From NCBI GenBank assembly GCA_963724765.1, contig CAVRVY010000003.1, forward strand, positions 1,568,001-1,632,000: a stretch of 64,000 bases of DNA, read 5' to 3'. A program made the position numbers and the translations under genes. The notes under the pieces are model-generated. The model searched no databases. It was not told the origin of the DNA and saw nothing but the letters and a program-made list of their open reading frames with translations. The stretch is from an uncultured delta proteobacterium. GTDB taxonomy: Bacteria > Desulfobacterota > Binatia > Binatales > Binataceae. Below, piece by piece: positions 24,329 through 62,108 of the stretch; position 1 is the first letter of the stretch; every line of letters begins with the position of its first letter.

Positions 24329-24344
24329 CGGCACGTGCCTTGCT
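24329..24344 (+). promoter_or_regulatory. Putative sigma-54 promoter upstream of the NtrC-like gene
   Basis: CGGCAC-GTGCC-TTGCT. Confidence 0.65.
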
Positions 24345-24680
24345 GGGCTTTGCAAGACAACTTGAGTCAGGGCTATCGGGTCGAACCCCGGGTCGCTCTA
24401 CCTTGATCGGCCGATCAGGCAGCGGCGAAGAAGCCCTGCTGCATAACTAGCCCATTGATTGCTTGGCAAGATGCTGAGTGGGGCATAAGAGGATGAATCC
24501 TGCAATCGCGAGAGCACCGCAGGAGGATCGCTGCTCGGATGTTCATTGCACCGACGATCCGAATAGAAACGAGAACGACGGGGTGGCTCTCAGGACCAAT
24601 GCACCTGGTGGTGCAATAAATCTCTGGTTTCTCGTGGCGCGTGTCATAGGAAGGAATACAGCCTCCCCGCAGAAATCGTT

Positions 24681-26141
24681 ATGAAAGCCAGCGCCAGAGT
24701 ACTCATCGTCGAAGACAACGCCGATGCGCGGGAGGCTTGGTCCCTTCTGATTTCGTCCTGGGGTTACCGAGTCGACCAAGCAGAAGACGGCGAGCGTGCT
24801 TTGCAGTTGATTGAAAGCTGCAATCCGCAAATCCTTCTGCTCGATCTCAGATTGCCCAAGAAAGACGGCTTGGCGGTGCTCGGTGAGATTCGTGCGAACG
24901 GCTGGCAGCTTCCCACCATCGTGATCTCTGGCGAGGGCGAGATCGAAGACGCAGTACAATCAATAAAGCTCGGGGCCTACGACTATCTGCGCAAGCCAGT
25001 CGATCCGCATCACCTGGAGGTATTGCTCAACAATCTGCGCACGCATCTGACCGTCAGCAAGGAAAATCAGCTTTTACGCCGGCGGCTGATGGACGCCGGT
25101 GAGTTGGGACAACTGATCGGGCAATCGTTCGCGATGCGCCGCGTGATGGCCTCGGTTGAGCAAGTCGCGCCGAGCAGCGCATCGATTGTAATCGTCGGTG
25201 AAAGCGGTACCGGCAAGGAATTGGTGGCTCGCACCATCCATGACCTTTCGCCGCGGTCCAACGGTCCTTATATCGCCATTAATTGCGCCGCCATGCCCGA
25301 GACCCTGATGGAAAGCGAGTTGTTCGGTCATGAGCGCGGAGCTTTCACCGGCGCCGATCGCCGCCGCGAGGGCTGTTTCGAACTCGCGACCGGCGGAACG
25401 CTCCTGCTCGATGAAATCGGCGAGATGAAGCCGGAATTGCAGGCGAAGCTTTTGCGGGTTCTCGAAGAACGGAAGGTTCGCCGTCTGGGCGGCAGTAGCG
25501 AGATCCCGGTCGATGTGCGCGTACTGGCTGCGACGAATCGCAATCTTGAGGCCCATCTTCGCGAAGGTAAATTCCGCGAAGACCTCTACTACAGGCTCAA
25601 TATTTTTACTATTCAGCTACCGACGCTACGCGATCGCCCTGAGGACGTCCCGACCTTGATCGAGCATTTCCTGCGACAGCTTGCCCCGCTGGCGGGTAAA
25701 CCGGTCGTGGGTATGGTAGCCGAATGTATCGAGCTGCTCAGGTCTCAACGCTGGCCGGGGAATGTGCGGCAGTTGCGCAATGTGATCGAACGGGCGCTTA
25801 TCGTAACACGGGGACCATTAATCACGACCGCAGACCTGCCGGAGGAAATCAAACCTACGCTGGCGGAACAGACTACACTTAATATACTGGAGAAGACGGT
25901 CAAATCTGAGTTGTCCGATGAGATCACACCCGGTTCTGATGTGCGCCCCGCATTGGAAGTGCATGTGGGAATGTCATTGAACGCGGTCAAACGCGAGCTT
26001 TTATTGCAGACGCTTAAATTTACCGGCGGCAATAAGGCAAAAGCAGCGGAAATTCTCGGCGTCTCCCTCAAGACTCTTTACAATCATCTCAACGACGATC
26101 TGGCTAGGCGCCCTATAGACGTTAAGTTCAAACAGACATAA
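24681..26141 (+). CDS. Sigma-54-dependent response regulator (NtrC/AtoC-like REC-AAA+-HTH)
   Basis: Receiver LLLDLRLP, Walker A GESGTGKE, ESELFGHERGAFTGA, LLDE, WPGNVRQL, Fis HTH GNKAKAAEILGVS. Confidence 0.95.
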   Translation: MKASARVLIVEDNADAREAWSLLISSWGYRVDQAEDGERALQLIESCNPQILLLDLRLPKKDGLAVLGEIRANGWQLPTIVISGEGEIEDAVQSIKLGAYDYLRKPVDPHHLEVLLNNLRTHLTVSKENQLLRRRLMDAGELGQLIGQSFAMRRVMASVEQVAPSSASIVIVGESGTGKELVARTIHDLSPRSNGPYIAINCAAMPETLMESELFGHERGAFTGADRRREGCFELATGGTLLLDEIGEMKPELQAKLLRVLEERKVRRLGGSSEIPVDVRVLAATNRNLEAHLREGKFREDLYYRLNIFTIQLPTLRDRPEDVPTLIEHFLRQLAPLAGKPVVGMVAECIELLRSQRWPGNVRQLRNVIERALIVTRGPLITTADLPEEIKPTLAEQTTLNILEKTVKSELSDEITPGSDVRPALEVHVGMSLNAVKRELLLQTLKFTGGNKAKAAEILGVSLKTLYNHLNDDLARRPIDVKFKQT

Positions 26142-26391
26142 GTGCAATCTATCTTGGCGCAGGCTCTTCCGGCCTGCATTCCGAACACATTGGCTCGCCG
26201 AAGCAGCCTGGAAGCTTAAAACTCTAACGAATTCAGCTTTGGTCGTCCCTCAGTGCGGTCAGCGCAGCTCTCGCACAAGTTTTGCCTTTTCACCTTTGCG
26301 ATCTCGGGATTGGATGAATACGGCAACGGCTGAAGAACCAATTGTTCTGATTGAATAACGCTGATTCCTGATTCGAAATGAAGGGCGCCGA

Positions 26392-26407
26392 TGGCATCAG
26401 AGTTGCG
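26392..26407 (+). promoter_or_regulatory. Putative sigma-54 promoter
   Basis: TGGCAT-CAGAG-TTGCG, 44 nt before the ATG at 26452. Confidence 0.75.
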
Positions 26408-26451
26408 GGCGATTCGATTGGTTCTCATTTTATGCTCAGAGAGCGAGGAAA

Positions 26452-26982: not shown

Positions 26983-27623
26983 AAGCTCGCCACATATCGG
27001 GTGAAACGCGATTTTAGCAAGACCGTCGAGCCGAGCGGCGACTCCGAGCCCATTTCTTCGGATCGATTGCGTTACGTAATTCAAAAGCATGCGGCTTCCG
27101 GATTACACTATGATGTCCGGCTCGAAGTCGATGGAGTTTTGAGGTCGTGGGCTGTCAAGATCGATTGAAGGCAGTGGGTCTGATTAGCTTCTGCAAGACC
27201 ACCGGCGGCAAGGGTTTGCATGTGGTGACGCCGCTTGCGTACGTCAAGAAAGAACGCTTGGAATGGCCGGTCGCTAAAGCTTTCGCGCGCGAACTATGTA
27301 CGCAGATGGCTGCGGAGAGCCCAAATCGCTACCTGATCAACATGACGAAGAAGGCCCGCCCGGGCAAAATCTACCTCGACTATCTGCGTAACGATCGCAT
27401 GGCGACGGCAGTGGCGCCTCTATCACCGCGTGCTCGCAACGGTGCGCCGGTGTCGATGCCATTGTTGTGGACGCAGATGCGATCGGGACTGGATCCGATG
27501 CGCTTCAGCATTCGGACGGTACCGAGTCTGATCGGCAGAAGCGTCGCCTGGCAAGACTACTGCGAGGCCGAACGCGCATTGGGGCCGGCGATCAAACGAT
27601 TGAACAAGCTCAAGGCGGCGTGA
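26983..27623 (+). pseudogene. ligD: NHEJ ligase D remnant: phosphoesterase N-terminus joined out of frame to the polymerase C-terminus
   Basis: 26983-27156 reads [19 protein letters not shown]...[27 protein letters not shown] (PE domain). It abuts KTTGGKGLHVVTPL...IYLDYLRNDRMATAVAPLSPRAR (Pol domain) in another frame. The ligase domain is missing. Confidence 0.85.
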
Positions 27624-27626
27624 ACC

Positions 27627-28732
27627 TTGCCACGCGCTGCGAAAAAATCGAAGAGCAACGGAATAGCCGCGCTGCCCGTGCCGCTCGATACGCGTCCGAT
27701 GGAAGCGCGGTTGGTAGGCGATCTGCCGCGGGAGCCGGGCTGGCAATTCGAGCCAAAATGGGACGGCTTTCGATGTTTGGCGTTCCGGGCCGGCGACGAG
27801 GTCGAGCTCAGGGCCAAGTCAGGAAAGACGCTGTCGCGTTACTTTCCCGAAGTTGTAGCGATGCTCGGCGCGATTGCGCCCGAGTCATTTATCGTCGACG
27901 GAGAACTGGCCATTCCGATTGATGAAAGCCTCTCGTTTGAGGCGTTGCAGGCGCGCTTGCATCCTGCCGAAAGTCGCGTGCGCAAACTGGCGTCCAAACG
28001 CCAGCCATCTTCATCCTGTTCGATTGTCTGATGACCGCCGATGAAGTGAGCCTGCTCGACGCGCCGCTGACGGATCGTCGTGCCGCGCTTGAGGATTTCT
28101 TCGATTCCGCGAGTCGTGAAGCCGCCTTGAAGCTGACTCCGTATACCCGCGAGTATCGCGAGGCGCAGCGATGGCTGGATCACGCTGGCGGTGCGCTCGA
28201 TGGAATTGTTGCCAAACGTACGGACGGCGCCTACCATCCCGGCGAACGCGCGACCTCAAAGTTCAAGCGGATGCGCACGGCGGATTGCGTGGTCGGTGGC
28301 TTTCGATATGAGCAGGGTAGCCGCCTGGTGGGATCGTTGCTGCTCGGCCTGTATGACAAGGACGGTAAGCTGGATCACGTTGGCTTCACCTCATCCTTTG
28401 GCAGCACCGATCGAAAGGTCTTGACCAGGCGGCTTGAGGCGATGATTGGCAAACCTGGGTTCACCGGTAATGCGCCCGGCGGTCCGAGTCGATGGAGTAA
28501 CGAACGCAGCGGAGAATGGCAACCCCTGCGGGCCGAACTGGTCGTCGAAGTCCGTTACGATCACATCACCGGGGATCGCTTTCGGCATGGCACCCGGCTC
28601 ATCCGCTGGCGCCCCGACAAGGCGCCCGAACAGTGCACATTCGATCAGATCGAGCGCGAAGCCAGACCTGCGAGGCTGGTTGCGCAGACGCTCGATCGAT
28701 CATTGGCATCAGGCCCTACGCGACGACGCTAA
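27627..28732 (+). pseudogene. ligC: ATP-dependent DNA ligase (LigC-like), frameshifted near 27997
   Basis: EPKWDGFR, VDGEL in the first frame; TPAIFILFDCL, DGIVAKR, KFKR, RFRH...WRPDK in the second frame; could be an assembly error. Confidence 0.8.
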
Positions 28733-29078: not shown

Positions 29079-29094
29079 TGGCGCATTTGTTGCT
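29079..29094 (+). promoter_or_regulatory. Putative sigma-54 promoter
   Basis: TGGCGC-ATTTG-TTGCT upstream of the YdeP-like gene. Confidence 0.75.
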
Positions 29095-29173: not shown

Positions 29174-31570
29174 TTGAAAACTCTCGATTTCACAACAACG
29201 AACCGCTTTCGGTATCCAGCCGGCCCCTTGCTCTTCGGGGTGTTGTTCGTATTGGGGGCCAAGCTTATTGCCAACAGGCGCCGAGCGCGCATCGTACCCT
29301 ATGCCGGACCGGCCGGTGGTCGGGGCTCTGCAAAAGCGGTTGGAGAAGCATTGATGCGCGAACGCGTGCCCCTCAGCGGCGCGCGCCTCTTGCTGCACCA
29401 GAATAAACATAGGGGTTTCGCGTGTGTCAGTTGCGCATGGGCAAAACCAAAATCACGCCCGTTGGAGTTTTGCGAGAACGGAGCCAAGGCTACCATCTGG
29501 GAAATTGACGCTCACCGGGCGACGCCGGAGTTCTTTGCGAATCACACGGTCCAGGATCTGCTTACGTGGTCTGACCACCAATTGGAACGACAAGGGCGTC
29601 TTACTTATCCGCTTCGGTGGGACAAGGAGAGCGATAAGTACCTACCTGTCCCGTGGGAAGAGGCTTTTCGCGATATCGGGCAGCGACTCCAGGGTTGTAA
29701 TCCTAAATCGGTGGTATTTTATACCTCCGGACGGGCCTCGCTTGAGACTTCTTACCTGTTTGGATTAATGGCTCGCCTTTACGGGAATAACAATCTTCCT
29801 GATTCCTCCAACATGTGTCATGAGAGCACGTCCGTAGCATTGCCCGAGAGTATTGGCGTGCCCGTCGGAACAGTTATCCTCGACGATTTCGACCAAACCG
29901 ATTGCATTCTCTTCTTCGGCCAAAACGTGGGCAGTAACAGTCCGCGAATGATGCATCAGTTACAAAATGCCGTTCAACGCGGTGCTCAAATCATTACTTT
30001 CAATCCACTGCGCGAGCGCGGATTAGAACGATTTACCAATCCTCAATCGCCTGTCCAGATGCTGACCGGCTCCTCCACCACGATCAGCAGTCAGTATCAC
30101 CAGTTGAAGGCGGGCGGTGATATCGCTGCAATCATGGGTATTTGTAAAGCCCTGATTGAGATGGATGACGCGAGCCGCCGCAATGGCCACGTATCGGTGC
30201 TCGATCATGAGTTTATAGAAAACCACGTCCACGGTTTTACAGATTTTGCCAATGACGCTCGAAATTATTCCTGGCAACATCTCGAGCGGGAGGCGGGAAT
30301 AAGCCGCGCCGCTATTGAAGCTGCAGCAGCGAGTTATGCTCGCGCGAAAAGCGTCATCGCCGTTTATGGTATGGGGTTGACGCAACATCGGGCCGGAGTG
30401 GAAGCGGTTCAGATGCTCGTCAATCTTCTGCTCCTGCGCGGGAACATCGGAAGACCAGGAGCAGGCATTTGTCCCGTCCGCGGCCATTCGAACGTTCAGG
30501 GTCAGCGCACGGTCGGCATCACTGAAAAGCCGGAATTGGTTCCGCTCGACCGGCTTGCCGAGCAATATGGCTTCGAACCCCCACGCGATAAGGGGATGAA
30601 TACCGTCGAAGCTTGCGAAGGAATAGTAGCGGGCCGCGTCAACGCCTTCGTCATGCTGGGTGGAAATTTCGTTAGAGCAATTCCTGAAAAGGAAATGATG
30701 GAAACGGCGTGGCGAAAACTGCGCCTTACCGTTGCGATCTCGACCAAGTTAAACCGCAGCCACCTAGTACATGGTGAAGTCTCTTATGTGCTGCCATGCC
30801 TTGGACGAACTGAGGTCGATCGTCAGGCGACCGGCCGGCAAGCTATCTCTACTGAAGACAGCACCGGGTTTTTTCACGCCTCTCGCGGATTCCAAAGACC
30901 GGCCAGCAAACACTTGCTGTCCGAGCCGCGAATCGTGGCGGAAATCGCGAAGGCGACCCTAACTCCCAATCCAAAAGTCGATTGGGATGGTTGGATCGCG
31001 GATTATGGCCAAATTCGTGAATCGATCGAAGCGACTTATCCCGAGAATTTCACGGCCTTTAACCGGCGGATGTGGCGGTCCGAGGGTTTTCAGCGGAAGA
31101 TCGCCGCGCGTCAGCGCAAATGGAAGACGAGCACCGGCAAGGCGAACCTTATCAGTCCCAAAAGCTTGCGCGAGGATCCTGATACTCGCCAGGCAGACGA
31201 TGTGCTTCGAATGATAACGCTGCGGAGCAACGACCAATTTAATACGACAATCTACGGATATGACGATCGGCTTCGAGGCATTCTTGGCACCCGTAGCATA
31301 ATACTCATGCACTGCAATGATATCGCGCGGCTGGGTTTAGCCGAAAGCCAGATGGTCGTTATCCCCACAGTTGCCGACGACGGAATTAGGCGAGAACTGA
31401 AGGGCTTGCAGGTCGTGACATATAATATCCCGGAGGGCTGCGTCGGAACGTACTATCCCGAGGCTAATGTATTGATTCCGCTGTGGCATCATGCCGAGCG
31501 AAGTAAAGTCCCGGCGGCAAAGTCTGTACCGGTGAGGGTTCATGCGTTAGGTGACCAGACGGGTCTCTAA
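29174..31570 (+). CDS. FdhF/YdeP family molybdopterin oxidoreductase
   Basis: CVSCAW, EFCENGAKA, YTSGRAS, NNLPDSSNMCHE, PVRGHSNVQGQRTVGI, RSNDQFNTTIYG; start uncertain. Confidence 0.9.
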   Translation: MKTLDFTTTNRFRYPAGPLLFGVLFVLGAKLIANRRRARIVPYAGPAGGRGSAKAVGEALMRERVPLSGARLLLHQNKHRGFACVSCAWAKPKSRPLEFCENGAKATIWEIDAHRATPEFFANHTVQDLLTWSDHQLERQGRLTYPLRWDKESDKYLPVPWEEAFRDIGQRLQGCNPKSVVFYTSGRASLETSYLFGLMARLYGNNNLPDSSNMCHESTSVALPESIGVPVGTVILDDFDQTDCILFFGQNVGSNSPRMMHQLQNAVQRGAQIITFNPLRERGLERFTNPQSPVQMLTGSSTTISSQYHQLKAGGDIAAIMGICKALIEMDDASRRNGHVSVLDHEFIENHVHGFTDFANDARNYSWQHLEREAGISRAAIEAAAASYARAKSVIAVYGMGLTQHRAGVEAVQMLVNLLLLRGNIGRPGAGICPVRGHSNVQGQRTVGITEKPELVPLDRLAEQYGFEPPRDKGMNTVEACEGIVAGRVNAFVMLGGNFVRAIPEKEMMETAWRKLRLTVAISTKLNRSHLVHGEVSYVLPCLGRTEVDRQATGRQAISTEDSTGFFHASRGFQRPASKHLLSEPRIVAEIAKATLTPNPKVDWDGWIADYGQIRESIEATYPENFTAFNRRMWRSEGFQRKIAARQRKWKTSTGKANLISPKSLREDPDTRQADDVLRMITLRSNDQFNTTIYGYDDRLRGILGTRSIILMHCNDIARLGLAESQMVVIPTVADDGIRRELKGLQVVTYNIPEGCVGTYYPEANVLIPLWHHAERSKVPAAKSVPVRVHALGDQTGL

Positions 31571-31795
31571 CTTATCTGACCGATTATATCGCAGTGTTTG
31601 CAGAATGATTGTAGCACTTTGGCCTCCGTCCATCGGCCCGAGCGGTATTAGCGCAAAGCCTAATCCACAGACAGATCTTTTCAAAGGACGTCTCACCAAG
31701 GGTGCGCACGAACCTGAAGAATTGTCGCGGGCGCTCGCGCCTATCCTGGGACATTTGGACACTCAGATCGCAAAGCCACAAAAGGAGCAAACGAA

Positions 31796-32011
31796 ATGCC
31801 AAAGCATGAAGGAGCGGAGCATCACAAGAAGGCTGCTGAACACCATGAGCATGCCGCCCGCCATCACAAAGAGGCGGCTCGCCATCACGAAGAGGGGTCG
31901 CATGAAAAGGGCGGTCATCATGCCCATATCGCCCATGGACATCATTTGAATGCTGTCCATCATGCGGAGGAGGCGGCTAAAACGCACGCAAACCAGCACA
32001 GCAGTAAGTGA
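31796..32011 (+). CDS. Small histidine-rich protein (71 aa, 21 His)
   Basis: AAGGAG RBS; repeats AEHHKKAAEHHEHAARHHKEAARHH; terminator follows. Confidence 0.85.
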   Translation: MPKHEGAEHHKKAAEHHEHAARHHKEAARHHEEGSHEKGGHHAHIAHGHHLNAVHHAEEAAKTHANQHSSK

Positions 32012-32120: not shown

Positions 32121-32435
32121 ATGGATGACTATACACAGCGAGTGCGTTTACGCGCGTATTTGATCTGGGAACGCGAAGGTCGGCCGGAAGGGCTCGCAGA
32201 TGATCACTGGCTCGAGGCTGAACGGGACGTCGCGCAGGAAGAAGACGCTGCTGGCCTGCGAGCGGGACGTGCCTATGACAAAGGTGTCAAAGAGTTCACA
32301 CAATCCGGGCGGGTCGAACGAGCGGCTAAAGCGGCGCAGCAGGCGCTTGACGGCCCGGAAAAGGACGATCTCGAACAGGCACAGGAAACCGCGCGGCGGG
32401 CTGGCAGAGGCGATGATGCTGCCGGTCGGCGTTAG
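32121..32435 (+). CDS. DUF2934 domain protein
   Basis: RVRLRAYLIWEREGRPEGLADDHWLEAE; AAGGA RBS before ATG 32121. Confidence 0.85.
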   Translation: MDDYTQRVRLRAYLIWEREGRPEGLADDHWLEAERDVAQEEDAAGLRAGRAYDKGVKEFTQSGRVERAAKAAQQALDGPEKDDLEQAQETARRAGRGDDAAGRR

Positions 32436-32570: not shown

Positions 32571-33156
32571 ATGGTTAAACCTCTAGAGGGTAAGAAAATA
32601 GCGATTCTACTCACCGACGGCGTGGAGCAATCCGAATTGACCGAACCGCGGAGAGCGCTCGAGGAGGCGGGCCCAGATCGACCTGATTTCGCCTGCAGAG
32701 GGTACCATCCAGGCGATGAAGCACAGGGAAAAAGGGGACACCTTCAAGATAGATGTGCCGCTAAATGCGGCCGATCCCGGCGATTACGACGCGCTGTTGC
32801 TGCCGGGCGGTGTGGCGAATCCTGACGAACTGCGCACGAATTCTCAAGCGGTGAGCTTTGTCAGGGCGATCTTCGATAGTGGCAAGCCTGTGTCCGCGAT
32901 CTGTCATGGACCCTGGATGCTGGTCGAGGCCGATGTGGTTCGTGGACGGATGATGACATCGTGGCCGTCACTAAAGACTGACATACAGAACGCGGGGGGG
33001 ACGTGGACGGACCGCGAGGTCGTCCAGGATGGTCAATTGACTACCAGCCGCAAGCCCGAGGATATTCCTGCATTCATACGCGAGACGCTGGTTGCGTTCG
33101 CTGCGGCGCCGGAGAATTCGACTCTAAAACGGATCAACGCGTCGCTGCCGCGTTAG
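32571..33156 (+). pseudogene. PfpI/YhbO (DJ-1) type 1 glutamine amidotransferase-like protein, frameshifted near 32672
   Basis: KKIAILLTDGVEQSELTEPRRALEEAG, then in the next frame AQIDLISP...YDALLLPGGVANPD...AICHGPW...TSRKPED. Confidence 0.85.
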
Positions 33157-33209
33157 TCGGCAAGTATACGCAACGGTGCTCTGCGCCGAAGCAATTAGAA
33201 GGAGATAAC

Positions 33210-35342
33210 GTGGCGGCTAAAGCGTCTGACAATCGTCGCAAAGCGGCGCGACTGATGGACCAAAGGGTGATGAGAGGGTCTGGCGGCGAGACTCATCAGA
33301 TCGCCGAGAACGACGTCCCGCAGTTGACTACCCAACAGGGTATCCCCGTCGCAGATGATCAGAACTCCCTGAAAATAGGAGTCCGCGGCCCAGCAGCTCT
33401 GGAGGATTTTCATCTTCGTGAAAAGATTTTCCACTTCGATCACGAACGCATTCCGGAACGGGTCGTCCACGCTCGCGGGTTCGGAGCGCATGGCTATTTC
33501 GAAAACTACGAGTCGTTAGCTTCTATCACGCGGGCGAATCTATTTCAGCGCGCGGGCGAGAGAACGCCGGCCTTCGTGCGGTTCTCCACAGTAGCTGGAA
33601 ACAAAGGATCTGCCGATCTTGCACGCGATGTCCGCGGTTTTGCGGTTAAGCTATATACCAAGGAAGGCAACTGGGATATCGTCGGGAATAACATCCCGGT
33701 CTTTTTTATCCAGGATGCGATCAAGTTCCCCGACTTGATCCACGCCGCCAAAGAAGAGCCTGACCGCGGATTTCCGCAGGCTCAGACCGCACATGACAAT
33801 TTTTGGGATTTTATATCTCTCACTCCAGAAAGTATTCACATGGCTATGTGGATCATGTCTGACCGCGCGATACCTCGTTCGTTCCGCTTTATGGAGGGCT
33901 TTGGGGTACATACGTTCCGTCTGATTAATGCAAAAGGCAAATCCACGTTCGTAAAATTTCACTGGAAGCCTAAGCTCGGTTTGCAGTCGGTCGTGTGGAA
34001 TGAGGCAATCAAGATCAATGGTGCGGATCCCGACTTCCATCGACGGGATTTATGGAGCGCCATCCAATCAGGCAACTGTCCCGAATGGGAGCTTGGGCTG
34101 CAACTATTTGATGAGAAATTCGCTGACAATTTTGCGTTTGACGTTCTGGATGCTACCAAGATTATTCCCGAAGAGCAGATACCCATAAGGAAAATCGGTA
34201 GGCTGGTTCTCGATCGCTGCGTGGACAATTTCTTTGCGGAGACCGAACAAGTAGCCTTCTGTACGCAGAATATAGTGCCCGGCGTGGATTTCAGTAACGA
34301 CCCGCTACTCCAAGGCCGCAATTTTTCCTATCTCGACACCCAACTTAAGCGGTTGGGAGGTCCGAATTTCACTCGTCTGCCTGTGAATGCGCCGAAGTGC
34401 CCTTTTCACACGCTTCAGCAGGACGGTCATATGGCCCTGGTTAATCCCCAGACCCGCGTCAATTACGAGCCGAACTCCTGGGGTGGCGAGCTTGGCGGTC
34501 CTCGCGAATCAGAGCGCGGCTTTCAATCGTTTGCTGCAGAGGAAGAAGGTCCAAAACTGCGCAACCGTCCCGACAGGTTCGCGGACCATTACAGCCAGGC
34601 ACGTCAGTTTTACATCAGCCAGACCGATATAGAACAGCAGCATGTGTCGGCTGCGTTTGCTTTTGAACTGAGCAAGGTTGAAACGCCCGCAATCAGAAGC
34701 CGAATGATTTCGCATCTACTCAACGTCGACAAAGGCCTTGCGGAGACAGTCGCGGCGGCGCTGGGCCTCCGTACAATGCCCAAGCCTGCGGAGGCTGCTC
34801 GGCTTCCCCGCACCGATCTCAAGGCTTTGCCGTCGCTTAGTATATTGCTCAACGGTCCTGACAGCTTCGAAGGTCGCAAGGTCGGCGCACTTGTCACCGA
34901 TGGCGTCGATGCCGGCTTGATAAAAGCATTGCGAAGTCTGCTCGACGAGGAGGGAGCACAGCTAGAGATTGTGGCGCCGAGTGTCGGTGGCGTCGAGGCC
35001 AGTGATGGCGCGCGGGTCGAAGCCCATCAATCCATCGAGGGCGGCCCCTCGGTACTTTATGACGCGGTGGCACTGCTGGTCTCCGAGAAGGCCGTTAGTC
35101 ATCTGATGGCAGACACGGCGACCCGCGATTTCGTTTCAGATGCCTTCGCTCACTCGAAGTTTATCGCTTATACGGTGGCTGCCGCGCCACTGCTCAAGGC
35201 GACTATTGGCGAGGATAATCCGGACGGAGGCTTTATTCAGATCAAAGCCATTGCTGATGCGGCGGTGTTCGTAAAGACCTGTCGGAAGCTTCGCTTCTGG
35301 GAGCGCAAAACCAGGGCAGAAGCGAGAGAACGACGAGCTTAG
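33210..35342 (+). CDS. katE: Large-subunit monofunctional catalase HPII with C-terminal DJ-1-like domain
   Basis: [37 protein letters not shown]; GTG start at 33210 after AAGGAG. Confidence 0.95.
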
Positions 35343-35398: not shown

Positions 35399-35414
35399 CG
35401 GCATGCATTGTGCT
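35399..35414 (+). promoter_or_regulatory. Possible sigma-54 promoter
   Basis: CGGCAT-GCATT-GTGCT (GG-N10-GC), 28 nt before the SDR start. Confidence 0.5.
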
Positions 35415-37138: not shown

Positions 37139-39097
37139 TTAATTGTGCTCGACGCGGCCGATCAATGCCGCAATGGCCGCTGTCAGTTCGCTGGCGTCAA
37201 TCGGCTTGGACACGTGAACCTGGTATCCGGCAAGGAGCGCCCGGCGCCGGTCCTGGGGACGGGCGAGCGCGGTCAAAGCGATCGCCGGCAGTCTCTGGTA
37301 TGAGTAGCCGCGCGCCCGTACCTCGCGAATCAGATCGTATCCGTCGCGTTCCGGCATTCCGATGTCGCTGACCAGCACCTGCGGGTCGAATTGTTCGAGC
37401 TTGGCCAGTGCGGCATCGACGTCGACGGCGGTCGTCACCACTGCGCCAGTCTCGCTCAGGATGCGTGACATCACGATGCAAGTATCGGCATCATCGTCAA
37501 CGATGAGTACGCGCACACCTTCAAGCCGTGCGCCCTCGGCCATAGTCCCGCCATTGAGAATCTTGTCGACCACGTCGGGCGCGGGAGGTGAATCATCGAA
37601 CGCCGGGGCAATCGGCAACAGGACGGTGAATTTGGCTCCTTTGCCCTGCCCCTCGCTCGACGCTTCGACTGTGCCACCGTGCATTTCGACCAGGTGTTTG
37701 ACGATCGCGAGGCCGAGTCCGAGACCGCCCTCGACGCGATTGGCGTTGATGTCGCCCTGTCGGAATCGGTCGAAAAGGTAGGGCAGAAGCTCGGGCGAGA
37801 TTCCCTGGCCGGTATCATTGACGCTTATCTCGACGCGAGAGTTGACGCGCTCCAGCCGCACGTCGATTCGGCCACCCTTGGGCGTGAACTTGCTCGCATT
37901 GTTTACCAAGTTCCAGATTACCTGCTGCAGCCGCGCCGAATCGCCGAAAATCATTCCGACGCGCTGATCGAGTCGAGTCTCCAGGACGAGTTCCTTCGCG
38001 GCGATCGCCGGCGACAAGCTCTCGAGCGCTGATTTGATAGTCGCGGCAAGGTCGAGCGGCTGCACGTCCAACCGCAGCTTGCCCGAAATTATGGCTGACA
38101 CATCGAGCAAGTCGGAGATAAGCTGCGCCTGTGTCCTGGTACTTCGCTCGATCGCGGTCAATCCGCGCAGCACCTGTGCGCTGTCATCGACGTGCCCCAG
38201 CAGCAACTGGGTCCACAACAGAATAGAATTTAATGGTGTGCGCAGCTCGTGCGAGAGCGTGCCCAGAAATTCGTCCTTCAGGCGGCTGGCCCGTTCGGCT
38301 TCATTGCGCGCAGCCCGCTCGCTGGCGAGCAATTCATTTCGTTCGGTCTCGTGCTGCATCCGTTCGGTGATGTCGGTGACAACCGCCAGCCGCACGCCCG
38401 GAAAAGAATGAGCCGAGATATACCATTCCAGATGAACGAGCTTGTTGTCCGAATTGAACAATGGAAAAGTGCCCCGCCAGGTGTCCTTCCTTTCCAGCGC
38501 GCGCTCGATTTCCCGGGGATCGGCCGCAGCCTCCGGCGGCATGAAAGCAGACAGCGGCTGGCGCACGATCTGTTCGCGTGAGCGGTTAAGCAACTCACAC
38601 ATCGCCGGATTGACTTCCAGGTAAGTCAAGTGTTGATCGAGTAACAGTATCCCACTTACCGCATTGTCAAATACAGCTTTGAACTTGGCTTCGCTTTTAC
38701 GCATTTCATCTTCGGCGCGGCGCGCCCGCAAAAATGCGTTGACCGTGGCGATCAGCACCGGAGGCTCGATGGGATGGGTGAGATAGCCGTCGCTGCCAGC
38801 ATCGAGGCCCTGCGCTTTGTCGATTTCCTTGACGAAAGTGGCCGAGATATGAATTACCGGAAGTCGCGCCGTACGAGGATCAGTACGCAGCCGGCGGCAA
38901 ACGTCGAAGCCGTGGATATCCGGGAGATTGACATCGAGTAACAGGATATCGGTGTTGAGGGCACGTTCGAGCGCTTGCTCGCCATTGATGCCTTCGGCTA
39001 CGTCGAAATCAGCCGCCCGAAGAACGCGCGAAGTCGAATACAGCGTGGCCGGATTATCATCGACCACCAGGACCCGGGGAGGTGCTTCATCCGGCAT
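37139..39097 (-). CDS. Hybrid sensor histidine kinase (REC-PAS-HisKA-HATPase-REC)
   Basis: VLVVDD/LLDVNLPD receiver, PAS, LSHELRTPL, NASKFT, GLGLGL, C-terminal VSDIGMP receiver. Confidence 0.93.
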   Translation of the reverse strand: MPDEAPPRVLVVDDNPATLYSTSRVLRAADFDVAEGINGEQALERALNTDILLLDVNLPDIHGFDVCRRLRTDPRTARLPVIHISATFVKEIDKAQGLDAGSDGYLTHPIEPPVLIATVNAFLRARRAEDEMRKSEAKFKAVFDNAVSGILLLDQHLTYLEVNPAMCELLNRSREQIVRQPLSAFMPPEAAADPREIERALERKDTWRGTFPLFNSDNKLVHLEWYISAHSFPGVRLAVVTDITERMQHETERNELLASERAARNEAERASRLKDEFLGTLSHELRTPLNSILLWTQLLLGHVDDSAQVLRGLTAIERSTRTQAQLISDLLDVSAIISGKLRLDVQPLDLAATIKSALESLSPAIAAKELVLETRLDQRVGMIFGDSARLQQVIWNLVNNASKFTPKGGRIDVRLERVNSRVEISVNDTGQGISPELLPYLFDRFRQGDINANRVEGGLGLGLAIVKHLVEMHGGTVEASSEGQGKGAKFTVLLPIAPAFDDSPPAPDVVDKILNGGTMAEGARLEGVRVLIVDDDADTCIVMSRILSETGAVVTTAVDVDAALAKLEQFDPQVLVSDIGMPERDGYDLIREVRARGYSYQRLPAIALTALARPQDRRRALLAGYQVHVSKPIDASELTAAIAALIGRVEHN

Positions 39098-39100
39098 GCT

Positions 39101-40042
39101 CTAATCCTGGGACCGGGTTGCCAACTGGATTTCCGCCGCGGTAGGCAATCTGTTCGGCTTGAAATGCACCGGAATGATGGTTGAAAAAGTCGACCCGCGG
39201 CCCACTTCGCTTTCCACGGCGACGCTTCCGCCCAGCAATTCCGCCAGGCGCTTGCTGAGTGCAAGTCCGAGCCCGGTGCCGCGAAATCTTTTCTGGATCG
39301 GGGAGTCGACTTGCACGAAATCCTGGAACAGCGCGCCCTGATGCTTTTTGGGGATGCCGATGCCGGTGTCCGCTACCGCGAACGTCACCCAATCGGGCGT
39401 GCGGTACTGCGCTGAGACGCGTACCTCGCCCTTTTGCGTGAACTTGAGCGCGTTGGAAATAAAGTTTCGCAGGATCTGCGATAGCTTCTTGTCATCGGTA
39501 TAAATGCGCGGCACGTCGGTCGGTTCCTCGAAAACCAGCGTGACTGACTCGTTGGTGAGTATGGGTTTGAACATTCCTCTGAGCGCCGCAAAAAGGTCGA
39601 CCATCTCGAACCATTGCGGTGAGATCGAAATCCGGCCCGCATCGATCTTGGCCAGGTCAAGGAGGTCATTGACCATATCGGTCAATTCTTTGGCCGAGCC
39701 TTGAATGAACCGCACCTGCTTTTCCTGCTCGTCGGTGAGCGACCCATCCATTCGATCGAGCAGAATGCGGCTGATGCTGCGAATCGAACCGAGCGGTGTC
39801 CGAAACTCATGACTCATGTAGGAAAGGAAGCGGCTTTTGAGTTCCGAAACGTCCCGTAATTGCGCGGCTCTGTCATCGAGTTCGGCATACAGCGCGACGA
39901 CGCCGCTGTTGGTATCGGCAAGCTCGCGGCTCAGGTTGTCGATTTGCGCAAGACGTTCGCGCAGTTCGGCCTCCAACGCATCGCGCTGCTCGCGGATACG
40001 CTCCAACTCTTCGCGCACTGCCTCGGCCTCACGTATGATCAT
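39101..40042 (-). CDS. Cytoplasmic histidine kinase (coiled coil-HisKA-HATPase) of the stressosome operon
   Basis: ELADTNSGVVALYAEL, MSHEFRTPL, NALKFT, GTGLGL. Confidence 0.92.
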   Translation of the reverse strand: MIIREAEAVREELERIREQRDALEAELRERLAQIDNLSRELADTNSGVVALYAELDDRAAQLRDVSELKSRFLSYMSHEFRTPLGSIRSISRILLDRMDGSLTDEQEKQVRFIQGSAKELTDMVNDLLDLAKIDAGRISISPQWFEMVDLFAALRGMFKPILTNESVTLVFEEPTDVPRIYTDDKKLSQILRNFISNALKFTQKGEVRVSAQYRTPDWVTFAVADTGIGIPKKHQGALFQDFVQVDSPIQKRFRGTGLGLALSKRLAELLGGSVAVESEVGRGSTFSTIIPVHFKPNRLPTAAEIQLATRSQD

Positions 40043-41063
40043 GATTAACTAACGCTTGAAGGCGCGCTACCAGGATTGTTGCGTCGTCACGTCCTCGCTT
40101 GGCGTCGCGATATAGTATTGCGGCGATCACCCCAGTATCGGCCTGCGCCAACCCGGGATAGTCGTTCCATTTCCAACGCGCGCTCAATCCGTCCGAGTGC
40201 ATAATCAGCAGATCGCCATCTTGCCATTGATAGTCGAACTCTTGCAGCTTGCGCGCCTCGACACCGATAATGCCGTTATGGGACAGCAGCGGCCTGCTCT
40301 TGCCCGCCGAATTGATGATACTACCTACGATATTTCCTACACCCGCATAGCGAAGTTTGTACAGCCCAAGGTCCACTTGGGCCATCGCCATCGCCGCGCC
40401 TCGCGAGGAGCGCAGCGCGCTATGCGCCGCTTCGAGGTAACCGCGCGGCGAGTCGAACGACCCTTCGCTGAAAGCCTGCACGGCGTGGCCGGACGCGATC
40501 GCTGCCAGCGGGCCATGCCCCAATCCATCGATTACGACGGCCGACATCCGGCCGTCCTCTTGGCGGAATTGCCACGCATCGCCACATTCTTTCTCGCCGG
40601 GAGTCGGAACGCAGATCGCCGAGAATTGGGGTTGCGTGCGCGATTTTGCCTCTGGGGTCCGGACCCGCGATACCACCACAGTTCCGGCGGGCTGGGTCGA
40701 GTAAATCGCAAAGTCGGTGGACAAGCGCCGCACTGCCCCAAGACCGCAACCTCTGGTGCCGCCGCCTGAAACGCCATCGGCCATGGATCGCTGCAAGTTC
40801 GCGACGCCGGGGCCGCGGTCCAACGCGATTATTTCGATACCCGGTCCGGCCTCCGCGGGAAGTACGCGGATCAGTAGTTCTCCTCCTTGGGCGTGAAGAA
40901 GCAGGTTGGTCGCCAGTTCGGTGACGATCAGGGGAACGCGTCCGCGCTCGGCTTCCTTGATTCGGGCAAGTTCGGCCATATGCGAGGAAATCCGCCGTGC
41001 CTCGCCGATCGAGCTGCGGTCAGTAATCGCGATCGAATTGTGCTGATGAACTATCATCGCCAT
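40029..41063 (-). CDS. RsbT-like ATPase/kinase fused to a SpoIIE/RsbX PP2C phosphatase
   Basis: TELATNLLLH, DRGPG, GCGLG; CGD, IDGLGHG, HSDGL, DDAT. Confidence 0.88.
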   Translation of the reverse strand: MAMIVHQHNSIAITDRSSIGEARRISSHMAELARIKEAERGRVPLIVTELATNLLLHAQGGELLIRVLPAEAGPGIEIIALDRGPGVANLQRSMADGVSGGGTRGCGLGAVRRLSTDFAIYSTQPAGTVVVSRVRTPEAKSRTQPQFSAICVPTPGEKECGDAWQFRQEDGRMSAVVIDGLGHGPLAAIASGHAVQAFSEGSFDSPRGYLEAAHSALRSSRGAAMAMAQVDLGLYKLRYAGVGNIVGSIINSAGKSRPLLSHNGIIGVEARKLQEFDYQWQDGDLLIMHSDGLSARWKWNDYPGLAQADTGVIAAILYRDAKRGRDDATILVARLQALVNHDHT

Positions 41064-41070
41064 CCGCGTA

Positions 41071-41839: not shown

Positions 41840-41851
41840 GCCTCTAACTCG

Positions 41852-42921: not shown

Positions 42922-42937
42922 TGGCACAGGACGTGCA
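42922..42937 (+). promoter_or_regulatory. Putative sigma-54 promoter
   Basis: TGGCAC-AGGAC-GTGCA upstream of the FAD oxidase remnant. Confidence 0.65.
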
Positions 42938-48903: not shown

Positions 48904-48919
48904 AGCAAGACGTGGGCCA
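48904..48919 (-). promoter_or_regulatory. Putative sigma-54 promoter
   Basis: Minus strand TGGCCC-ACGTC-TTGCT, 23 nt before ATG 48880. Confidence 0.72.
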
Positions 48920-49569
48920 TAGTCTTGTGTCGTCGGATTTTTAATTCGACCTCAGGGCCTTATCCTGCTCGTACAGGCCGTGCAGTGAGGATGGCAAGCC
49001 CATCGGCCTCGCTTGGCAGGCGTATCGGCCTCGATTTTGAAAACAAGTGCGGACGTGTCTGAGCGATTTTCTTGATTGCAATGCCATACGATCGCTGTAG
49101 CGTCACGTAACTCGCGAAGGCGTCGCAAAAACATTTAAATTGTCGCAGGCATACGTTTTGCTGCAACGAAAGTCTGCCGTCTGATCTGATAGGAAAGTGA
49201 ATCTGTGTTGGGACATAAAAGCCCGAAGCGAATCCAATCATCCCGGCTTTGGGCGTTGGCTGATCCGCTGGTCCACGCGAGAACCGTTGGGTTGAAACTT
49301 CTAGCGCGACTACGCCCACGAATCTGTCCTGGCGATGATCTGTCCTGGCGACGATAGATCCAATCAGGCTCGGTCTGAGGCATCGGCGAAGACATCTGCG
49401 TAGCTGACCGATGAGCATTGAGTGCTAACGATGACGCTAAAACCGATGTCGCTGAATTTGTGACGACCGTTCTCCTGGCTTAACAGGCGGCGAATAATTT
49501 CTGCGCTCTGAAAAAGGGGCTGATGCACGTCTTTGCCATCTCCCTACATCTAAGCGCGGGGAGACGACA

Positions 49570-50688: not shown

Positions 50689-50866
50689 CAAAAGTGGCCG
50701 GGGCTGACGTCGCGGCGTTAAGCGATTGGGAAGGTGCTGATTAGTTGGGCTGACAAGCGACGGTCGTGCCGATTGTGGGTTCGAGCACTTACGAGTAACT
50801 AGATTGATCTCCTTTCTACTGACTGCCCTTGGCTGCGGGAGGTCGCATCGGTTGTACGATTCGCGC

Positions 50867-51327: not shown

Positions 51328-51343
51328 CGCAATGACCGTGCCC
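51328..51343 (-). promoter_or_regulatory. Putative sigma-54 promoter
   Basis: Minus strand GGGCAC-GGTCA-TTGCG upstream of the DksA-like gene. Confidence 0.7.
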
Positions 51344-51707: not shown

Positions 51708-51723
51708 CGGCATGCGGAATGCT
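51708..51723 (+). promoter_or_regulatory. Putative sigma-54 promoter
   Basis: CGGCAT-GCGGA-ATGCT, 54 nt before the SEC-C microprotein ATG. Confidence 0.6.
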
Positions 51724-51852: not shown

Positions 51853-51884
51853 GTCTCGCCCCAGTATCTAAAACATTATTTTGC

Positions 51885-52364: not shown

Positions 52365-52380
52365 CGGCACGCCTGTTGCT
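52365..52380 (+). promoter_or_regulatory. Putative sigma-54 promoter
   Basis: CGGCAC-GCCTG-TTGCT upstream of the AI-2E gene. Confidence 0.7.
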
Positions 52381-58381: not shown

Positions 58382-58397
58382 AGCAATCGACGTGCCC
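58382..58397 (-). promoter_or_regulatory. Putative sigma-54 promoter
   Basis: Minus strand GGGCAC-GTCGA-TTGCT. Confidence 0.72.
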
Positions 58398-59791: not shown

Positions 59792-59969
59792 TTCAAGATC
59801 TCCTATTCACCTGGCTTATCCATACGGAATTTTCCGCATGAAAGCTTTGTGTATCACGCCCCAGGATAAACAACAGTGACATACGAGCGCAGCCGCCCGT
59901 ACCTTTGCCGCACGCCACTCCCCGAGCCGTCGTCAAAACTCGAGCTCGATGCTGATCACAGAGAAGCTA

Positions 59970-59985
59970 AGCAACATGGCGGCCA
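59970..59985 (-). promoter_or_regulatory. Putative sigma-54 promoter
   Basis: Minus strand TGGCCG-CCATG-TTGCT upstream of the ferritin-like/DUF72 operon. Confidence 0.65.
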
Positions 59986-60303
59986 ATCTGCCGAGACCGC
60001 TTAAAATTTGCGGCAGATTTGTGCTTTCACAGGCAATCGAAGAGAAAAAACTTCGCTTCGCCGCGACTGGTTCGGCAGGAATAAGAGAAATGGCAGCAGA
60101 ATTTCGACTGAACCGCCCGCTGCGGCAATCATGTTACCGGTGACTTTTCGTAGCGTCCCTCGCCACACACTTCGTGTTGGATTGTAGGTGGCATCGCGGA
60201 CAATCAAAAAGTCAATTTCACCGGAAAAACCTACAACGCGGGAGAACATTTTCAAAAAGACGAGCTAAGACTGGATCGAACCGCGCTAAGACGCGGCGAG
60301 AAC

Positions 60304-60319
60304 CGGCATGTCCTTTGCT
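60304..60319 (+). promoter_or_regulatory. Putative sigma-54 promoter
   Basis: CGGCAT-GTCCT-TTGCT, 40 nt before the multicopper oxidase ATG. Confidence 0.75.
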
Positions 60320-60359
60320 CCGGTAAAGCGCGCGCTGCGTTCAAAGGACAATTTACACT

Positions 60360-62108
60360 ATGATCCATCCATTCGATCGTATCCTCCTGGTCGCGGCGGC
60401 AATCACCCTGATGATGCCGTCGCCGACGCGGGCCGCAGGATGCGTTCGCTACGCGCCGGGCAGCGCGGTCGTCGAGCCCGAAGATCTTTACAGCCAGAAC
60501 GGCGTATTGACCGTCGACCTCTCCTATCAGACGAGCACTGACGCCAACGGGAATCAGCTCTTCTGTTACGTGCTTCCCGACGGGAACCAGTCGCCAACGC
60601 TACACATAAATCCCGGTGATCGGCTGGTTCTGACGCTTACGAATGATACGCCTGAGCCGGCGCCATCAGACGCGATGAAAATGCAGATGCAGATGTCTTC
60701 CTCGCCCACTGATGCTTGCGGCGCTTCCACGATGGACACGTCGTCGACGAACGTGCACTTCCATGGCACGAATACGCCGCCGGTATGCCATCAGGACGAG
60801 GTCATCCACACGCTCATAAACTCCGGTCAGACGTTCACCTATGACGTGCAGTTTCCAGCCGACGAGCCCTCCGGTGAGTACTGGTATCATCCGCATGTCC
60901 ATGGCTTGAGCGAGATGGCCGTACTCGGCGGCGCCACGGGCGTAATCATTGTAGAGGGTATAGAAAACCTTCAGCCCAAGGTTTCCGGTCTTCCACAGCG
61001 GATTCTGGTCGTGCGCGATAGCGTCATTCCAGGCGACCCTGATCCGCCCGCTCCCGCCAAGGACCTTTCGCTGAATTACGTTCCGATTCCGTATCCCGAC
61101 TATCCGCCGGCGATCGTCACAATGAGTCCGGAGGGGCAGGAATTTTGGCGCGTCGCGAACACTTCGGCGGATACGGTGCTGGATCTCCAAGTCAAATACG
61201 ACGGCAGGGCACAGCCGCTCGAGATCGTTGCGCTGGATGGTGTTCCGATTGGCTCCCAGGACGGTTCGCGCCGCGGCAAGCTCATCACGAGCACAGCTAT
61301 CCTGGTGCCACCCGCCTCACGCGCTGAGTTTATCCTGAAGGGCCCCACTACCAAGGTGAAGCTCGCACAGTTCGTGACGCTCAACGTTGATACGGGCCCG
61401 CAGGGTGATAATGATCCGGCGCGGCCGTTGGCTACCATTCAGACCACCGAGGCTCCTGGCGCGCAGACAATCTCTGAGATGCCAGCGGTTTCTGGACCGC
61501 CAAGTCCTCAACGCTTCGAGGGCCTGGCGGAGGCTAAGCCTACTGCAACGCGGAAACTCTACTTCTCAGAAAATCAGACAAACTTTTTCATAACCGTCGA
61601 CGGTCAGACCCCGGTCGCATTCAGTCCTGACCTTCCGCCGGCAATCACAACTACCCAGGGGGCGGTCGAAGACTGGACCATTGAGAACCGCAGCGGTGAG
61701 GTTCACGAATTTCATATCCATCAAGAGCACTTCCTGCTGCTGCAGCGTAATGGAAAAGCCGTCCCTTCAGGTCAGCGCCAGTTTTTCGATACGGTCAATA
61801 TTCCCTACTGGAAAGGCAAAGGTCCCTACCCGAGCATAACGGTCAGGCTGGACTTCCGCGGACCGACGATCGGCGATTTCGTTTATCATTGCCACATCCT
61901 TGAGCACGAGGATGGCGGCATGATGGCGATCATCCGCGTGCTGCCGCAGGGCTCCAGCGCCGCGCTGAAGAAGCGCACTTTGGGGGCCGCTTACGCCGTT
62001 CAACCGACGACGCCTCAGGCGCCGACCAGGGCGACCGCGCCGGCGTGGCGCTCGAAAGTCCTGCTGTTGTCGCGGTCGGCAATTACGGAGATTGTACTTG
62101 GTCTTTAG
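60360..62108 (+). CDS. Secreted multicopper oxidase
   Basis: NVHFHG, YWYHPHVH, HEFHIHQ, YHCHILEHEDGGMM; signal peptide. Confidence 0.93.
   Translation: MIHPFDRILLVAAAITLMMPSPTRAAGCVRYAPGSAVVEPEDLYSQNGVLTVDLSYQTSTDANGNQLFCYVLPDGNQSPTLHINPGDRLVLTLTNDTPEPAPSDAMKMQMQMSSSPTDACGASTMDTSSTNVHFHGTNTPPVCHQDEVIHTLINSGQTFTYDVQFPADEPSGEYWYHPHVHGLSEMAVLGGATGVIIVEGIENLQPKVSGLPQRILVVRDSVIPGDPDPPAPAKDLSLNYVPIPYPDYPPAIVTMSPEGQEFWRVANTSADTVLDLQVKYDGRAQPLEIVALDGVPIGSQDGSRRGKLITSTAILVPPASRAEFILKGPTTKVKLAQFVTLNVDTGPQGDNDPARPLATIQTTEAPGAQTISEMPAVSGPPSPQRFEGLAEAKPTATRKLYFSENQTNFFITVDGQTPVAFSPDLPPAITTTQGAVEDWTIENRSGEVHEFHIHQEHFLLLQRNGKAVPSGQRQFFDTVNIPYWKGKGPYPSITVRLDFRGPTIGDFVYHCHILEHEDGGMMAIIRVLPQGSSAALKKRTLGAAYAVQPTTPQAPTRATAPAWRSKVLLLSRSAITEIVLGL

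Follow-up and report, generated by a model that had tools for sequence, protein, structure and literature searches.

We analyzed a 64,000-nt stretch of DNA (G000:C3:1568001-1632000; hereafter the window) from an uncultured member of the Binataceae, whose genome (G000) comprises 5.4 Mb in 4 contigs, with a reported completeness of 97% and a reported contamination of 5%. The region from 24 to 62 kb of the window is, in our judgement, probably an accessory island of lower GC content in which sigma-54 carries a general-stress-type programme of an uncultured soil and peat lineage. At least eleven transcription units for stress-protection proteins are predicted to begin there at sigma-54 (-24/-12) promoters, and comparison of related genomes indicates that purifying selection acts on these promoter sequences across the genus. 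The predictions are well grounded at the level of the promoters. At the level of the regulon they are hypothetical, as is a single master activator in place of several behind the programme.

Sigma-54 promoters in the island and in related genomes

The consensus of sigma-54 promoters, TGGCAC-N5-TTGCW-like, was converted into a site score. An invariant GG-N10-GC was required, and seven further consensus positions were counted (T 5' of GG; C, A and C/T 3' of GG; TT 5' of GC; A/T 3' of GC). Non-coding DNA was defined genome-wide by a crude caller of open reading frames (ORFs), according to which 79-81% of the genome is coding.

A preliminary description of the window had listed twelve GG-N10-GC motifs and stated that all of them point at the adjacent gene. 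All twelve are present on the strands given; eight reach 6 of the 7 consensus positions (24329, 26392, 29079, 42922, 48919, 52365, 58397 and 60304) and four reach 5 (35399, 51343, 51708 and 59985). The statement about orientation holds for eleven, which stand 24-337 nt from the start of a gene outside insertion sequences (IS), and fails for 42922 (+), which faces an IS1595 transposase. Two further sites, 49147 (+) and 50771 (-), had been overlooked.

The intergenic DNA of the island (24-62.2 kb, 7,537 bp) contains 16 matches at a score of at least 5 and 9 at a score of at least 6, compared with 2.32±1.46 (maximum 8) and 0.30±0.52 (maximum 3) in 500 dinucleotide shuffles of the same DNA. The intergenic DNA of 1-23.9 kb (2,200 bp) contains one match at 5 or more and none at 6 or more, with shuffle means of 0.51 and 0.05. 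A total of 207 matches at 6 or more were found in the whole genome, 130 of them within the 20% of non-coding DNA. As a control of equal composition, the reversed motif gave 22 non-coding matches in the genome and none inside the island. Among 2,634 sliding windows of 38 kb the island is the densest, with 12 matches at 6 or more (mean 1.46, standard deviation 1.76). A loose search for TGGCAC-N5-TTGC with up to two mismatches was not enriched (64 matches in the window, 67.0±7.5 in shuffled sequence), and sigma-70-like sites over 24-43.5 kb were not above the shuffles (9 vs 8.5±3.1).

Conservation was followed by DNA searches of 17 genomes of the genus (G000 included). Rearranged islands were found in G005, G006, G016, G004 and G014 and then scanned. 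Homologous islands with conserved promoters are present in at least five other genomes of the genus, with variable content and position, and the order of genes around the promoters is reshuffled among genomes. In the alignments, conservation is highest over the -24/-12 block, and most of the intergenic DNA around it cannot be aligned. Of the twelve listed sites, ten (all except 42922 and 60304) recur in same-genus genomes, before orthologues or at syntenic positions, with diverged flanks.

The motif TGGCGCATTTGTTGCT (29079..29094, +, score 6) lies 80 nt 5' of a gene for an FdhF/YdeP-family molybdopterin oxidoreductase (29174..31570, +; Pfam; TIGR01701 at 973 bits, cut-off 582). It is retained at -93 to -101 in all four close orthologues (78-85% identity) amid diverged intergenic surroundings, and a promoter remnant is found in G004. 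The motif TGGCCGCCATGTTGCT (59970..59985, -, score 5) lies 179 nt 5' of a ferritin-like gene (59261-59791, -) and is identical, or different by 1 nt, before seven of eight same-genus orthologues. The gene for a DksA/TraR-type zinc-finger protein (50867-51241, -) follows 87 nt after a motif at 51328..51343 (-, score 5), whose core GGGCACAnTCATTGCG is retained in 4/4 orthologues with diverged flanks. Likewise, a site of score 5 at 35399..35414 (+), 29 nt 5' of the gene for a short-chain dehydrogenase/reductase (SDR) of YghA/YdaD type (35443-36309, +; NF005214 at 447.6 bits, cut-off 413), occurs at the same position in 4/4 fetched orthologues, and G005 keeps a remnant of it.

The motif at 49147..49162 (+, score 6), 408 nt 5' of a GT4 glycosyltransferase gene (49570-50688), scores at least 6 in four of five orthologues and at least 5 in all five, together with conserved upstream blocks. 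Four of five orthologues are also preceded by the motif in the case of the gene for an AI-2E-family transporter fused to a B12-binding domain (52597-54405, +; motif 52365..52380, +, score 6, 217 nt upstream), and the same count applies to orf210 (57711-58343, -; motif 58382..58397, -, score 6, 39 nt upstream). The 210-aa product of orf210 has no Pfam or NCBIfam match and is probably DUF892/YciF-like, an assignment suggested by an atlas score of 0.91 and taken here as a lead. A site of score 6 at 26392..26407 (+), 45 nt 5' of a gene for a DUF6496 protein (26452-26910, +; Pfam), is kept at the G005 orthologue (1/1) and at syntenic sites in G016 and G004. The second of two DUF3147 genes (gene b, 48539-48880) lies 24 nt from a motif at 48904..48919 (-, score 6), and in three of four relatives a sigma-54-type motif stands at the head of the unit containing this gene. 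The site at 51708..51723 (+, score 5) is located 67 nt 5' of a gene for a 24-aa peptide with a SEC-C motif (51790-51864); the same motif and a peptide with one substitution are found in G005 (1/1). The peptide has a CPCGSGKAYKDCCG core, and a similar promoter occurs at C4:1486778 ahead of an unrelated ORF.

The motif at 60304..60319 (+, score 6) lies 41 nt 5' of a multicopper oxidase gene (60360-62108, +), and none of four orthologue loci, all of them distant, has a motif at 6 or more. The orphan sigma-54-like motif at 50756..50771 (-, score 5) is found directly 3' of dksA and aims into the 3' end of the GT4 gene. Its counterparts lie downstream of dksA in G016, G004 and G006, where the next gene match is more than 1 kb away, and it may reflect a lost gene or an antisense start. 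A perfect-score match at 31786..31801 (-) overlaps the ribosome-binding site and start codon of a gene for a 71-aa histidine-rich protein; it is probably due to chance and would run antisense to the YdeP gene.

Motifs of the same type were also found outside the window. Seventeen of the 130 non-coding matches lie within 3 kb of activator genes, a zone that makes up 3.0% of the genome (about 4-fold enrichment). Away from the dense clusters, 20 genes preceded by a motif were scanned, and they include those for a NiFe hydrogenase small subunit, a Tad pilus protein, a Wzy-type ligase, two polysaccharide deacetylases, single-domain response regulators and a Usp-CBS protein. The hydrogenase, pilus, Wzy, deacetylase and response-regulator genes are classical targets of sigma-54. 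Two further motif-dense regions, 632-690 kb and 704-754 kb of contig C4, contain about 20 sites in addition to the 14 of the 38-kb island. By the crude ORF calls, motifs are found there within about 260 nt before genes for CsbD, Hsp20-CBS, PolX, a PRTase/dienelactone-hydrolase protein, a PLD-like protein and an FtsX-type permease, and before a unit resembling an ABC transporter, a GT4 protein and a debranching enzyme. For a BON-domain and a DUF992 protein, the called gene is the first one past a motif, at a distance of 420-980 nt, and RtcB is the second called gene past a motif. Together, the island and the C4 clusters encode many protective proteins that are unrelated to one another and typical of general-stress regulons.

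Activators, sigma factors and the stressosome operon

The sole activator gene within the island (24681..26141, +) encodes an NtrC-family response regulator with a receiver domain (REC), a sigma-54 AAA+ domain and a Fis-type helix-turn-helix (Pfam), that is, an enhancer-binding protein (EBP). The protein is intact: GAFTGA, Walker A and Walker B are all present, and LLLDLRLP contains the receiver Asp. Its best solved relatives are the Aquifex NtrC-family chains 4l4u and 1ny5, and it stays under every NCBIfam equivalog cut-off (AtoC 432 bits with a cut-off of 714, PEP_resp_reg 411.8 with 502.6, NtrC 410 with 558.6). The gene had been described as itself lying behind a sigma-54 motif, and this was upheld: CGGCACGTGCCTTGCT (24329..24344, +, score 6) is located 337 nt upstream, and the near-identical CGGCACATGCCTTGCT occurs in duplicate 138 and 169 nt 5' of the 87%-identical orthologue in G005 (1/1 fetched). 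Among eight related loci from metagenome-assembled genomes (MAGs), three (L002, L003 and L007) have a motif 165-271 nt upstream of the activator homologue.

A paralogue with 85% identity was found at C4:706775-708166, within the 704-754 kb cluster. It has an upstream motif of its own and follows two hybrid kinase genes, whose products are a 1,592-aa protein of multi-HAMP/GAF type and a REC-PAS protein. On contig C243 of G066 and contig C272 of G041 (another genus), ferritin genes with a motif have an activator homologue no more than about 7 kb away. At the family level, the presence of the activator compared with that of the ferritin motif gave no clean pattern, in tallies that took in one unpublished genome (G049). 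Loci of activators with 43-50% identity, from Bryobacteraceae and others, showed no motif excess (71 matches in 1.53 Mb, counted over the full set of 80 loci).

The genome contains a single rpoN (one PF04552 match, 203.8 bits) and 31 matches to the EBP family PF00158, of which 28 are strong. Eleven sigma-70-family matches were found, comprising two near-identical RpoD, one RpoH-like and eight ECF-type proteins. None of the ten scanned against NCBIfam (the second RpoD copy omitted) reached the cut-offs for RpoS or SigB/F/G. NepR and PhyR_sigma2 had no match in the genome, and both were detected in a Caulobacter control. With the eight ECF sigma factors taken without subgroup typing and the genome 97% complete, a regulator of RpoS, SigB or EcfG type is likely to be absent. 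The presence of rpoN and the lack of the usual stress sigma factors had been named as points to verify; rpoN is present, and neither RpoS, SigB/F/G nor an EcfG-PhyR-NepR system was detected. The RpoD twins are located at C3:835721-837466 and C1:657356-659293, and an RpoD-like C-terminal fragment at C2:39747-40010; the pair represents either a duplication or part of the contamination reported for the assembly.

A stressosome-type operon occupies 37139..42712 on the minus strand of the island (Pfam). It begins with RsbR (RsbRD_N and STAS domains; 41852-42712, -), followed by RsbS (STAS), RsbT (HATPase_c/HATPase_c_2) and a phosphatase in which an RsbW-like HATPase_c_2 is fused to SpoIIE/PP2C (40029-41063, -). 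RsbR, RsbS, RsbT and PP2C, the set that defines a stressosome, are encoded in a single operon. The RsbU-RsbV-RsbW-SigB output is not seen: the operon goes on into two histidine kinases (39101-40042, -, and 37139-39097, -), the second of which is a PAS hybrid kinase carrying two receivers, and no SigB/F/G was found at cut-off. The operon is 83% identical across its whole length in G005.

Two other loci were considered for a link between stressosome and activator. A second RsbRD_N match, at C1:619479, was rejected, as it belongs to a histidine kinase that is parted from an unrelated activator by a transposase and CoA-transferases. In another genus, locus L127 (G045:C14, 7426-15013) has the same stressosome-kinase operon arranged tail to tail with a gene for a 654-aa PAS-PAS sigma-54 activator. 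This activator is of PAS type and is no orthologue of the island activator; the arrangement gives weak support to such a link.

These components can be arranged into a putative mechanism. Sigma-54 RNA polymerase would wait in a closed state at the island promoters until an ATP-hydrolysing EBP remodels the complex. The likeliest activators would be the island NtrC-type regulator and its 85%-identical C4 paralogue, and the conserved sigma-54 motif ahead of each may create a feed-forward or autoregulatory loop. Input would arrive when histidine kinases phosphorylate the receiver Asp, and the kinase pair of the stressosome operon is one candidate for this role. The island and the two C4 clusters, with CsbD, Hsp20-CBS, PolX and others, would then constitute one sigma-54 stress-type programme. 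A more far-reaching version holds that sigma-54 replaces RpoS, SigB and EcfG, with a phosphorelay, to which the stressosome-coupled kinase pair is one input among others, acting on an autoregulated NtrC-type pair and, through it, on at least 30 promoters in three islands, before genes for catalase, ferritin/Dps-like, YciF-like, YdeP, CsbD, Hsp20 and PolX proteins and for compatible solutes. We put this version forward tentatively, as possible but doubtful.

Alternative readings and known systems of stress control

Several observations weigh against a common programme run by sigma-54. The promoter wiring seems young or patchy and fades with distance: at 34-51% identity, none of eight more distant homologues of YdeP shows a motif at 6 or more, and among 22 family-level ferritin loci outside G000 (the G049 locus excluded) six have a motif at 5 or more, namely G005, G066, G041, G048 and two paralogue loci. 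The motif at 42922..42937 (+, score 6), of doubtful function, is unconserved; the matching intergenic region of G005, between RsbR and the ion-channel gene, does not align with its counterpart in the window and contains no motif at 5 or more. Neither katE nor pfpI has its own motif in the window (none at 4 or more upstream), and a strong hairpin with a 13-bp stem (32019-32050), 3' of the gene for the histidine-rich protein, separates both from the YdeP promoter. In G006, the genes for YdeP, DUF2934, katE and DUF4142 are collinear behind the YdeP promoter. An RsbR of the island type is found in three of 41 genomes of the family, and a DNA match to the stressosome operon, among the 16 other genomes of the genus, in G005 alone. 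Since G006, G016, G004 and G014 retain the promoters without such a match, the stressosome cannot be an obligatory input. Gene calls beyond the window come from the crude ORF caller only.

A shared activator site was also not found. Searches for 6-8-mers, dyads of 4-5 nt and direct repeats (gaps 0-15) gave nothing significant after multiple testing, and when 33 upstream regions were compared all-versus-all by blastn-short, no match reached E≤0.05. A TTTTGAAA/TTTCAAAA block occurs upstream of four of the 14 island sites, which represent three independent loci (the GT4/DUF3147 pair, AI-2E and the multicopper oxidase), and a TTTTGAAA-type block stands upstream of DksA, AI-2E and GT4 in relatives. 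Elsewhere the block was found at 0/19 C4-cluster sites, 0/101 other sites and 23/4,507 background pieces. The pattern was picked post hoc and serves as a lead; the block could be the site of a bending protein.

The 28 strong EBP matches make several separate regulons equally possible. The promoters may be real sigma-54 promoters that form a mosaic of small regulons (oxidative, acid, osmotic/desiccation, metal and DNA repair), every one under a separate activator; their clustering in accessory islands would reflect the tendency of such genes to move and be shuffled as a group. To this reading we assign a minor but appreciable probability. It agrees with the number of EBPs and the lack of a common upstream site, with the restriction of the TTTTGAAA-type block to a subset, and with the reshuffled gene order. 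The -24/-12 variants are moreover promoter-specific and kept across genomes, as in the case of TGGCGCATTTGTTGCT for YdeP and TGGCCGCCATGTTGCT for ferritin. However, the island holds one activator gene and the second cluster one paralogue with 85% identity, activator homologues lie near motif-bearing ferritin genes in G066 and G041, and short degenerate activator sites can evade searches of the kind performed. The claim of a general stress response run by RpoN stands in part. The conserved promoters, rpoN, the activator, the stress-type gene content with its further clusters and the failure to find RpoS, SigB/F/G, NepR and PhyR speak for it, and the missing shared site, the 28 EBPs, the listed site that faces a transposase, the decayed ligD and the absence of own motifs at katE and pfpI do not.

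Another possibility is that dependence on sigma-54 chiefly silences a costly, horizontally acquired island that brings its own activator, with the stress flavour secondary. The GC content of the island is 55.8% compared with 62.1% for the genome, IS1595 and IS5 elements are present with IS5 copies of 98-99% identity elsewhere, ligD is decayed and pfpI frameshifted, and the content and position of the island vary among members of the genus. We nevertheless consider this explanation very unlikely, because the homologous islands with conserved promoters in at least five genomes of the genus imply wiring that is maintained and not merely imported, and because the same motif type is found at chromosomal classical targets; also, no integrase was found in Pfam scans of the island genes and no tRNA in the window. 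The motifs can hardly be chance matches or sites of another protein in front of genes read from sigma-70-type promoters, in spite of the unenriched loose search, the several motifs with 5/7 and the probably fortuitous perfect-score match, given the enrichment over shuffles and over the reversed motif, the exact -24/-12 blocks kept amid diverged flanks, the association with activator genes and classical targets, and the sigma-70-like sites at shuffle level.

The preferred reading, an island with sigma-54 as carrier of a general-stress-type programme, can be compared with known systems. katE, osmY/BON, dps, yciF-like and csbD genes are members of model regulons of RpoS or EcfG type. In the RpoS regulon and in the EcfG-PhyR-NepR system many protective genes are induced together, as is proposed here; the difference is that no RpoS was found at cut-off and no NepR or PhyR was found in this genome, and that sigma-54 needs an enhancer-binding ATPase. 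The SigB regulon of Bacillus and Listeria resembles the present set in its targets (KatE-type catalase, YdaD/YghA-type SDR, Dps/ferritin-like, CsbD, Hsp20-class and Usp) and in the RsbR-RsbS-RsbT-PP2C operon, which here lies inside the island. It differs in its output, as neither SigB/F/G at cut-off nor RsbV/RsbW-SigB was seen here and the operon ends in two histidine kinases, and in its promoters, as those of the island are of -24/-12 and not -35/-10 type and would require an ATP-dependent activator.

Single-purpose stress modules with sigma-54 are known, such as PspF-psp, RtcR-rtcBA, ZraR and NorR. They share with the island the combination of an activator, a -24/-12 promoter and a stress-related operon, and RtcB lies downstream of a motif in this genome as well. 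Those modules consist of one operon each, whereas 14 island sites and about 20 in the C4 clusters precede many unrelated protective genes here. In a comparative study, as far as its text was available, PspF is given as 'control of membrane stress response', 'catalase' occurs 0 times, and 'general stress' appears just in the background (on SigB) and the references (PMC3162934).

Closer parallels come from two other systems. In Vibrio vulnificus, a stressosome with two-component output has been described in Gram-negatives according to the abstracts (PMC4976288, PMC9237108, PMC10436020): RsbRST is present in a bacterium without SigB, followed by genes for a kinase and a regulator and by no sigma-factor module. 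Those abstracts do not mention a sigma-54 activator or sigma-54 promoters as the output. The island stressosome, in contrast, sits among sigma-54 promoters, 11 kb from the NtrC-type activator, and we infer a link between them. In the Borrelia Rrp2-RpoN-RpoS cascade, an NtrC-type regulator and sigma-54 are reported to stand atop a global adaptive programme (PMC2940757). There sigma-54 works via rpoS, whereas no rpoS was found here and the motifs lie directly before effector genes. No published regulon that pairs sigma-54 with a general stress response, a stressosome, or CsbD or catalase targets was found in a literature search whose scope stopped short of subscription journals and supplements.

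The mechanism itself is the ordinary design of sigma-54 and activator, and the target set is the unusual part. Sigma-S, sigma-B and EcfG are the textbook lineage-specific master regulators, and the regulator is unknown for most uncultured soil phyla. If the more far-reaching version is true, it would represent a fourth, mechanistically distinct design of the bacterial general stress response, with no basal leak and with ATP spent at each initiation. A sigma-54 version would be strictly off until the ATPase acts, and its input would come by phosphorylation instead of sigma competition or partner switching. It would also tie a stressosome to a sigma-54 output, a link not found described in the literature searched. 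The promoter sequences could let stress states of an abundant uncultured group be read in soil and peat metatranscriptomes.

Further genes of the island

Left of about 23.6 kb the window contains housekeeping-type genes (pseudouridine synthase, QueC, acyl-CoA dehydrogenase). At the left edge of the island, a 137-aa ORF (23207-23620) with a molybdopterin-dinucleotide-binding domain as its sole domain may be the remnant of a further gene of YdeP/formate-dehydrogenase type. Of the features that mark a horizontal island, the deviant GC content and IS1595/IS5 scars were found, and an integrase family (Pfam scans of island genes) and a tRNA (window) were not.

The stress-type gene content named in the preliminary description was recovered for YdeP, the YghA/YdaD-type SDR, the ferritin and a probable YciF-like protein, and has to be qualified for ligD, a decayed remnant, and for katE and pfpI, which lack their own motifs. 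The genes for non-homologous end joining (NHEJ; 27147..28732, +; Pfam) are reduced to part of a primase-polymerase gene and to an ATP-dependent ligase gene broken in two at about 28030. The final 158 aa of the primase-polymerase remain, compared with 556-567 aa in intact relatives, and the ligase is divided into frames of 135 and 263 aa, compared with 367-376 aa. This decay is not an assembly error, because independent short-read contigs from other runs carry identical sequence at 27592-27852 and 27804-28113.

Behind the YdeP gene follow the gene for the histidine-rich protein (31796..32011, +), which has no Pfam family, and a gene for a DUF2934 protein (32122..32435, +; start inferred). The PfpI/DJ-1-like gene (32571..33156, +), named from its translation and not from a family search, is frameshifted into two frames that overlap at 32716-32825, and G005 contains orthologous pieces of it. 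An extra G after 32993 is seen in a single contig of low depth from a different run, and no listed contig spans the frameshift. The large-subunit catalase of KatE type (33003..35342, +; Pfam Catalase at 1e-178, with Catalase_C) probably starts near 33255. The SDR gene is followed by a gene for a DUF4142 protein (36406-36960).

The IS1595 transposase gene (43206-44201) separates the stressosome operon from the ion-channel gene, and a trypsin-like protein near it is noted as a lead. To its right are the genes for a K+-channel-type protein and the two DUF3147 proteins. The DUF3147 genes are neighbours in G005 and are split in G000 by an IS5-family element (47306-48397; element span 47172-48482), whose copies with 98-99% identity were found at C4:577523-578828, C4:579201-580510 and C1:758123-759431. 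The AI-2E-family gene is followed by a UDG-family gene, DUF2252 and aldo-keto reductase genes lie between the latter and orf210, a DUF72 gene lies between orf210 and the ferritin-like gene, and a gene for an LTXXQ protein follows the multicopper oxidase. MAGs of close relatives carry the label 'uncultured delta proteobacterium'. Among the runs listed as containing this DNA, none is of RNA. Contigs from four DNA runs confirm the sequence of the island, and the population occurs in soil, peat and sediment metagenomes.

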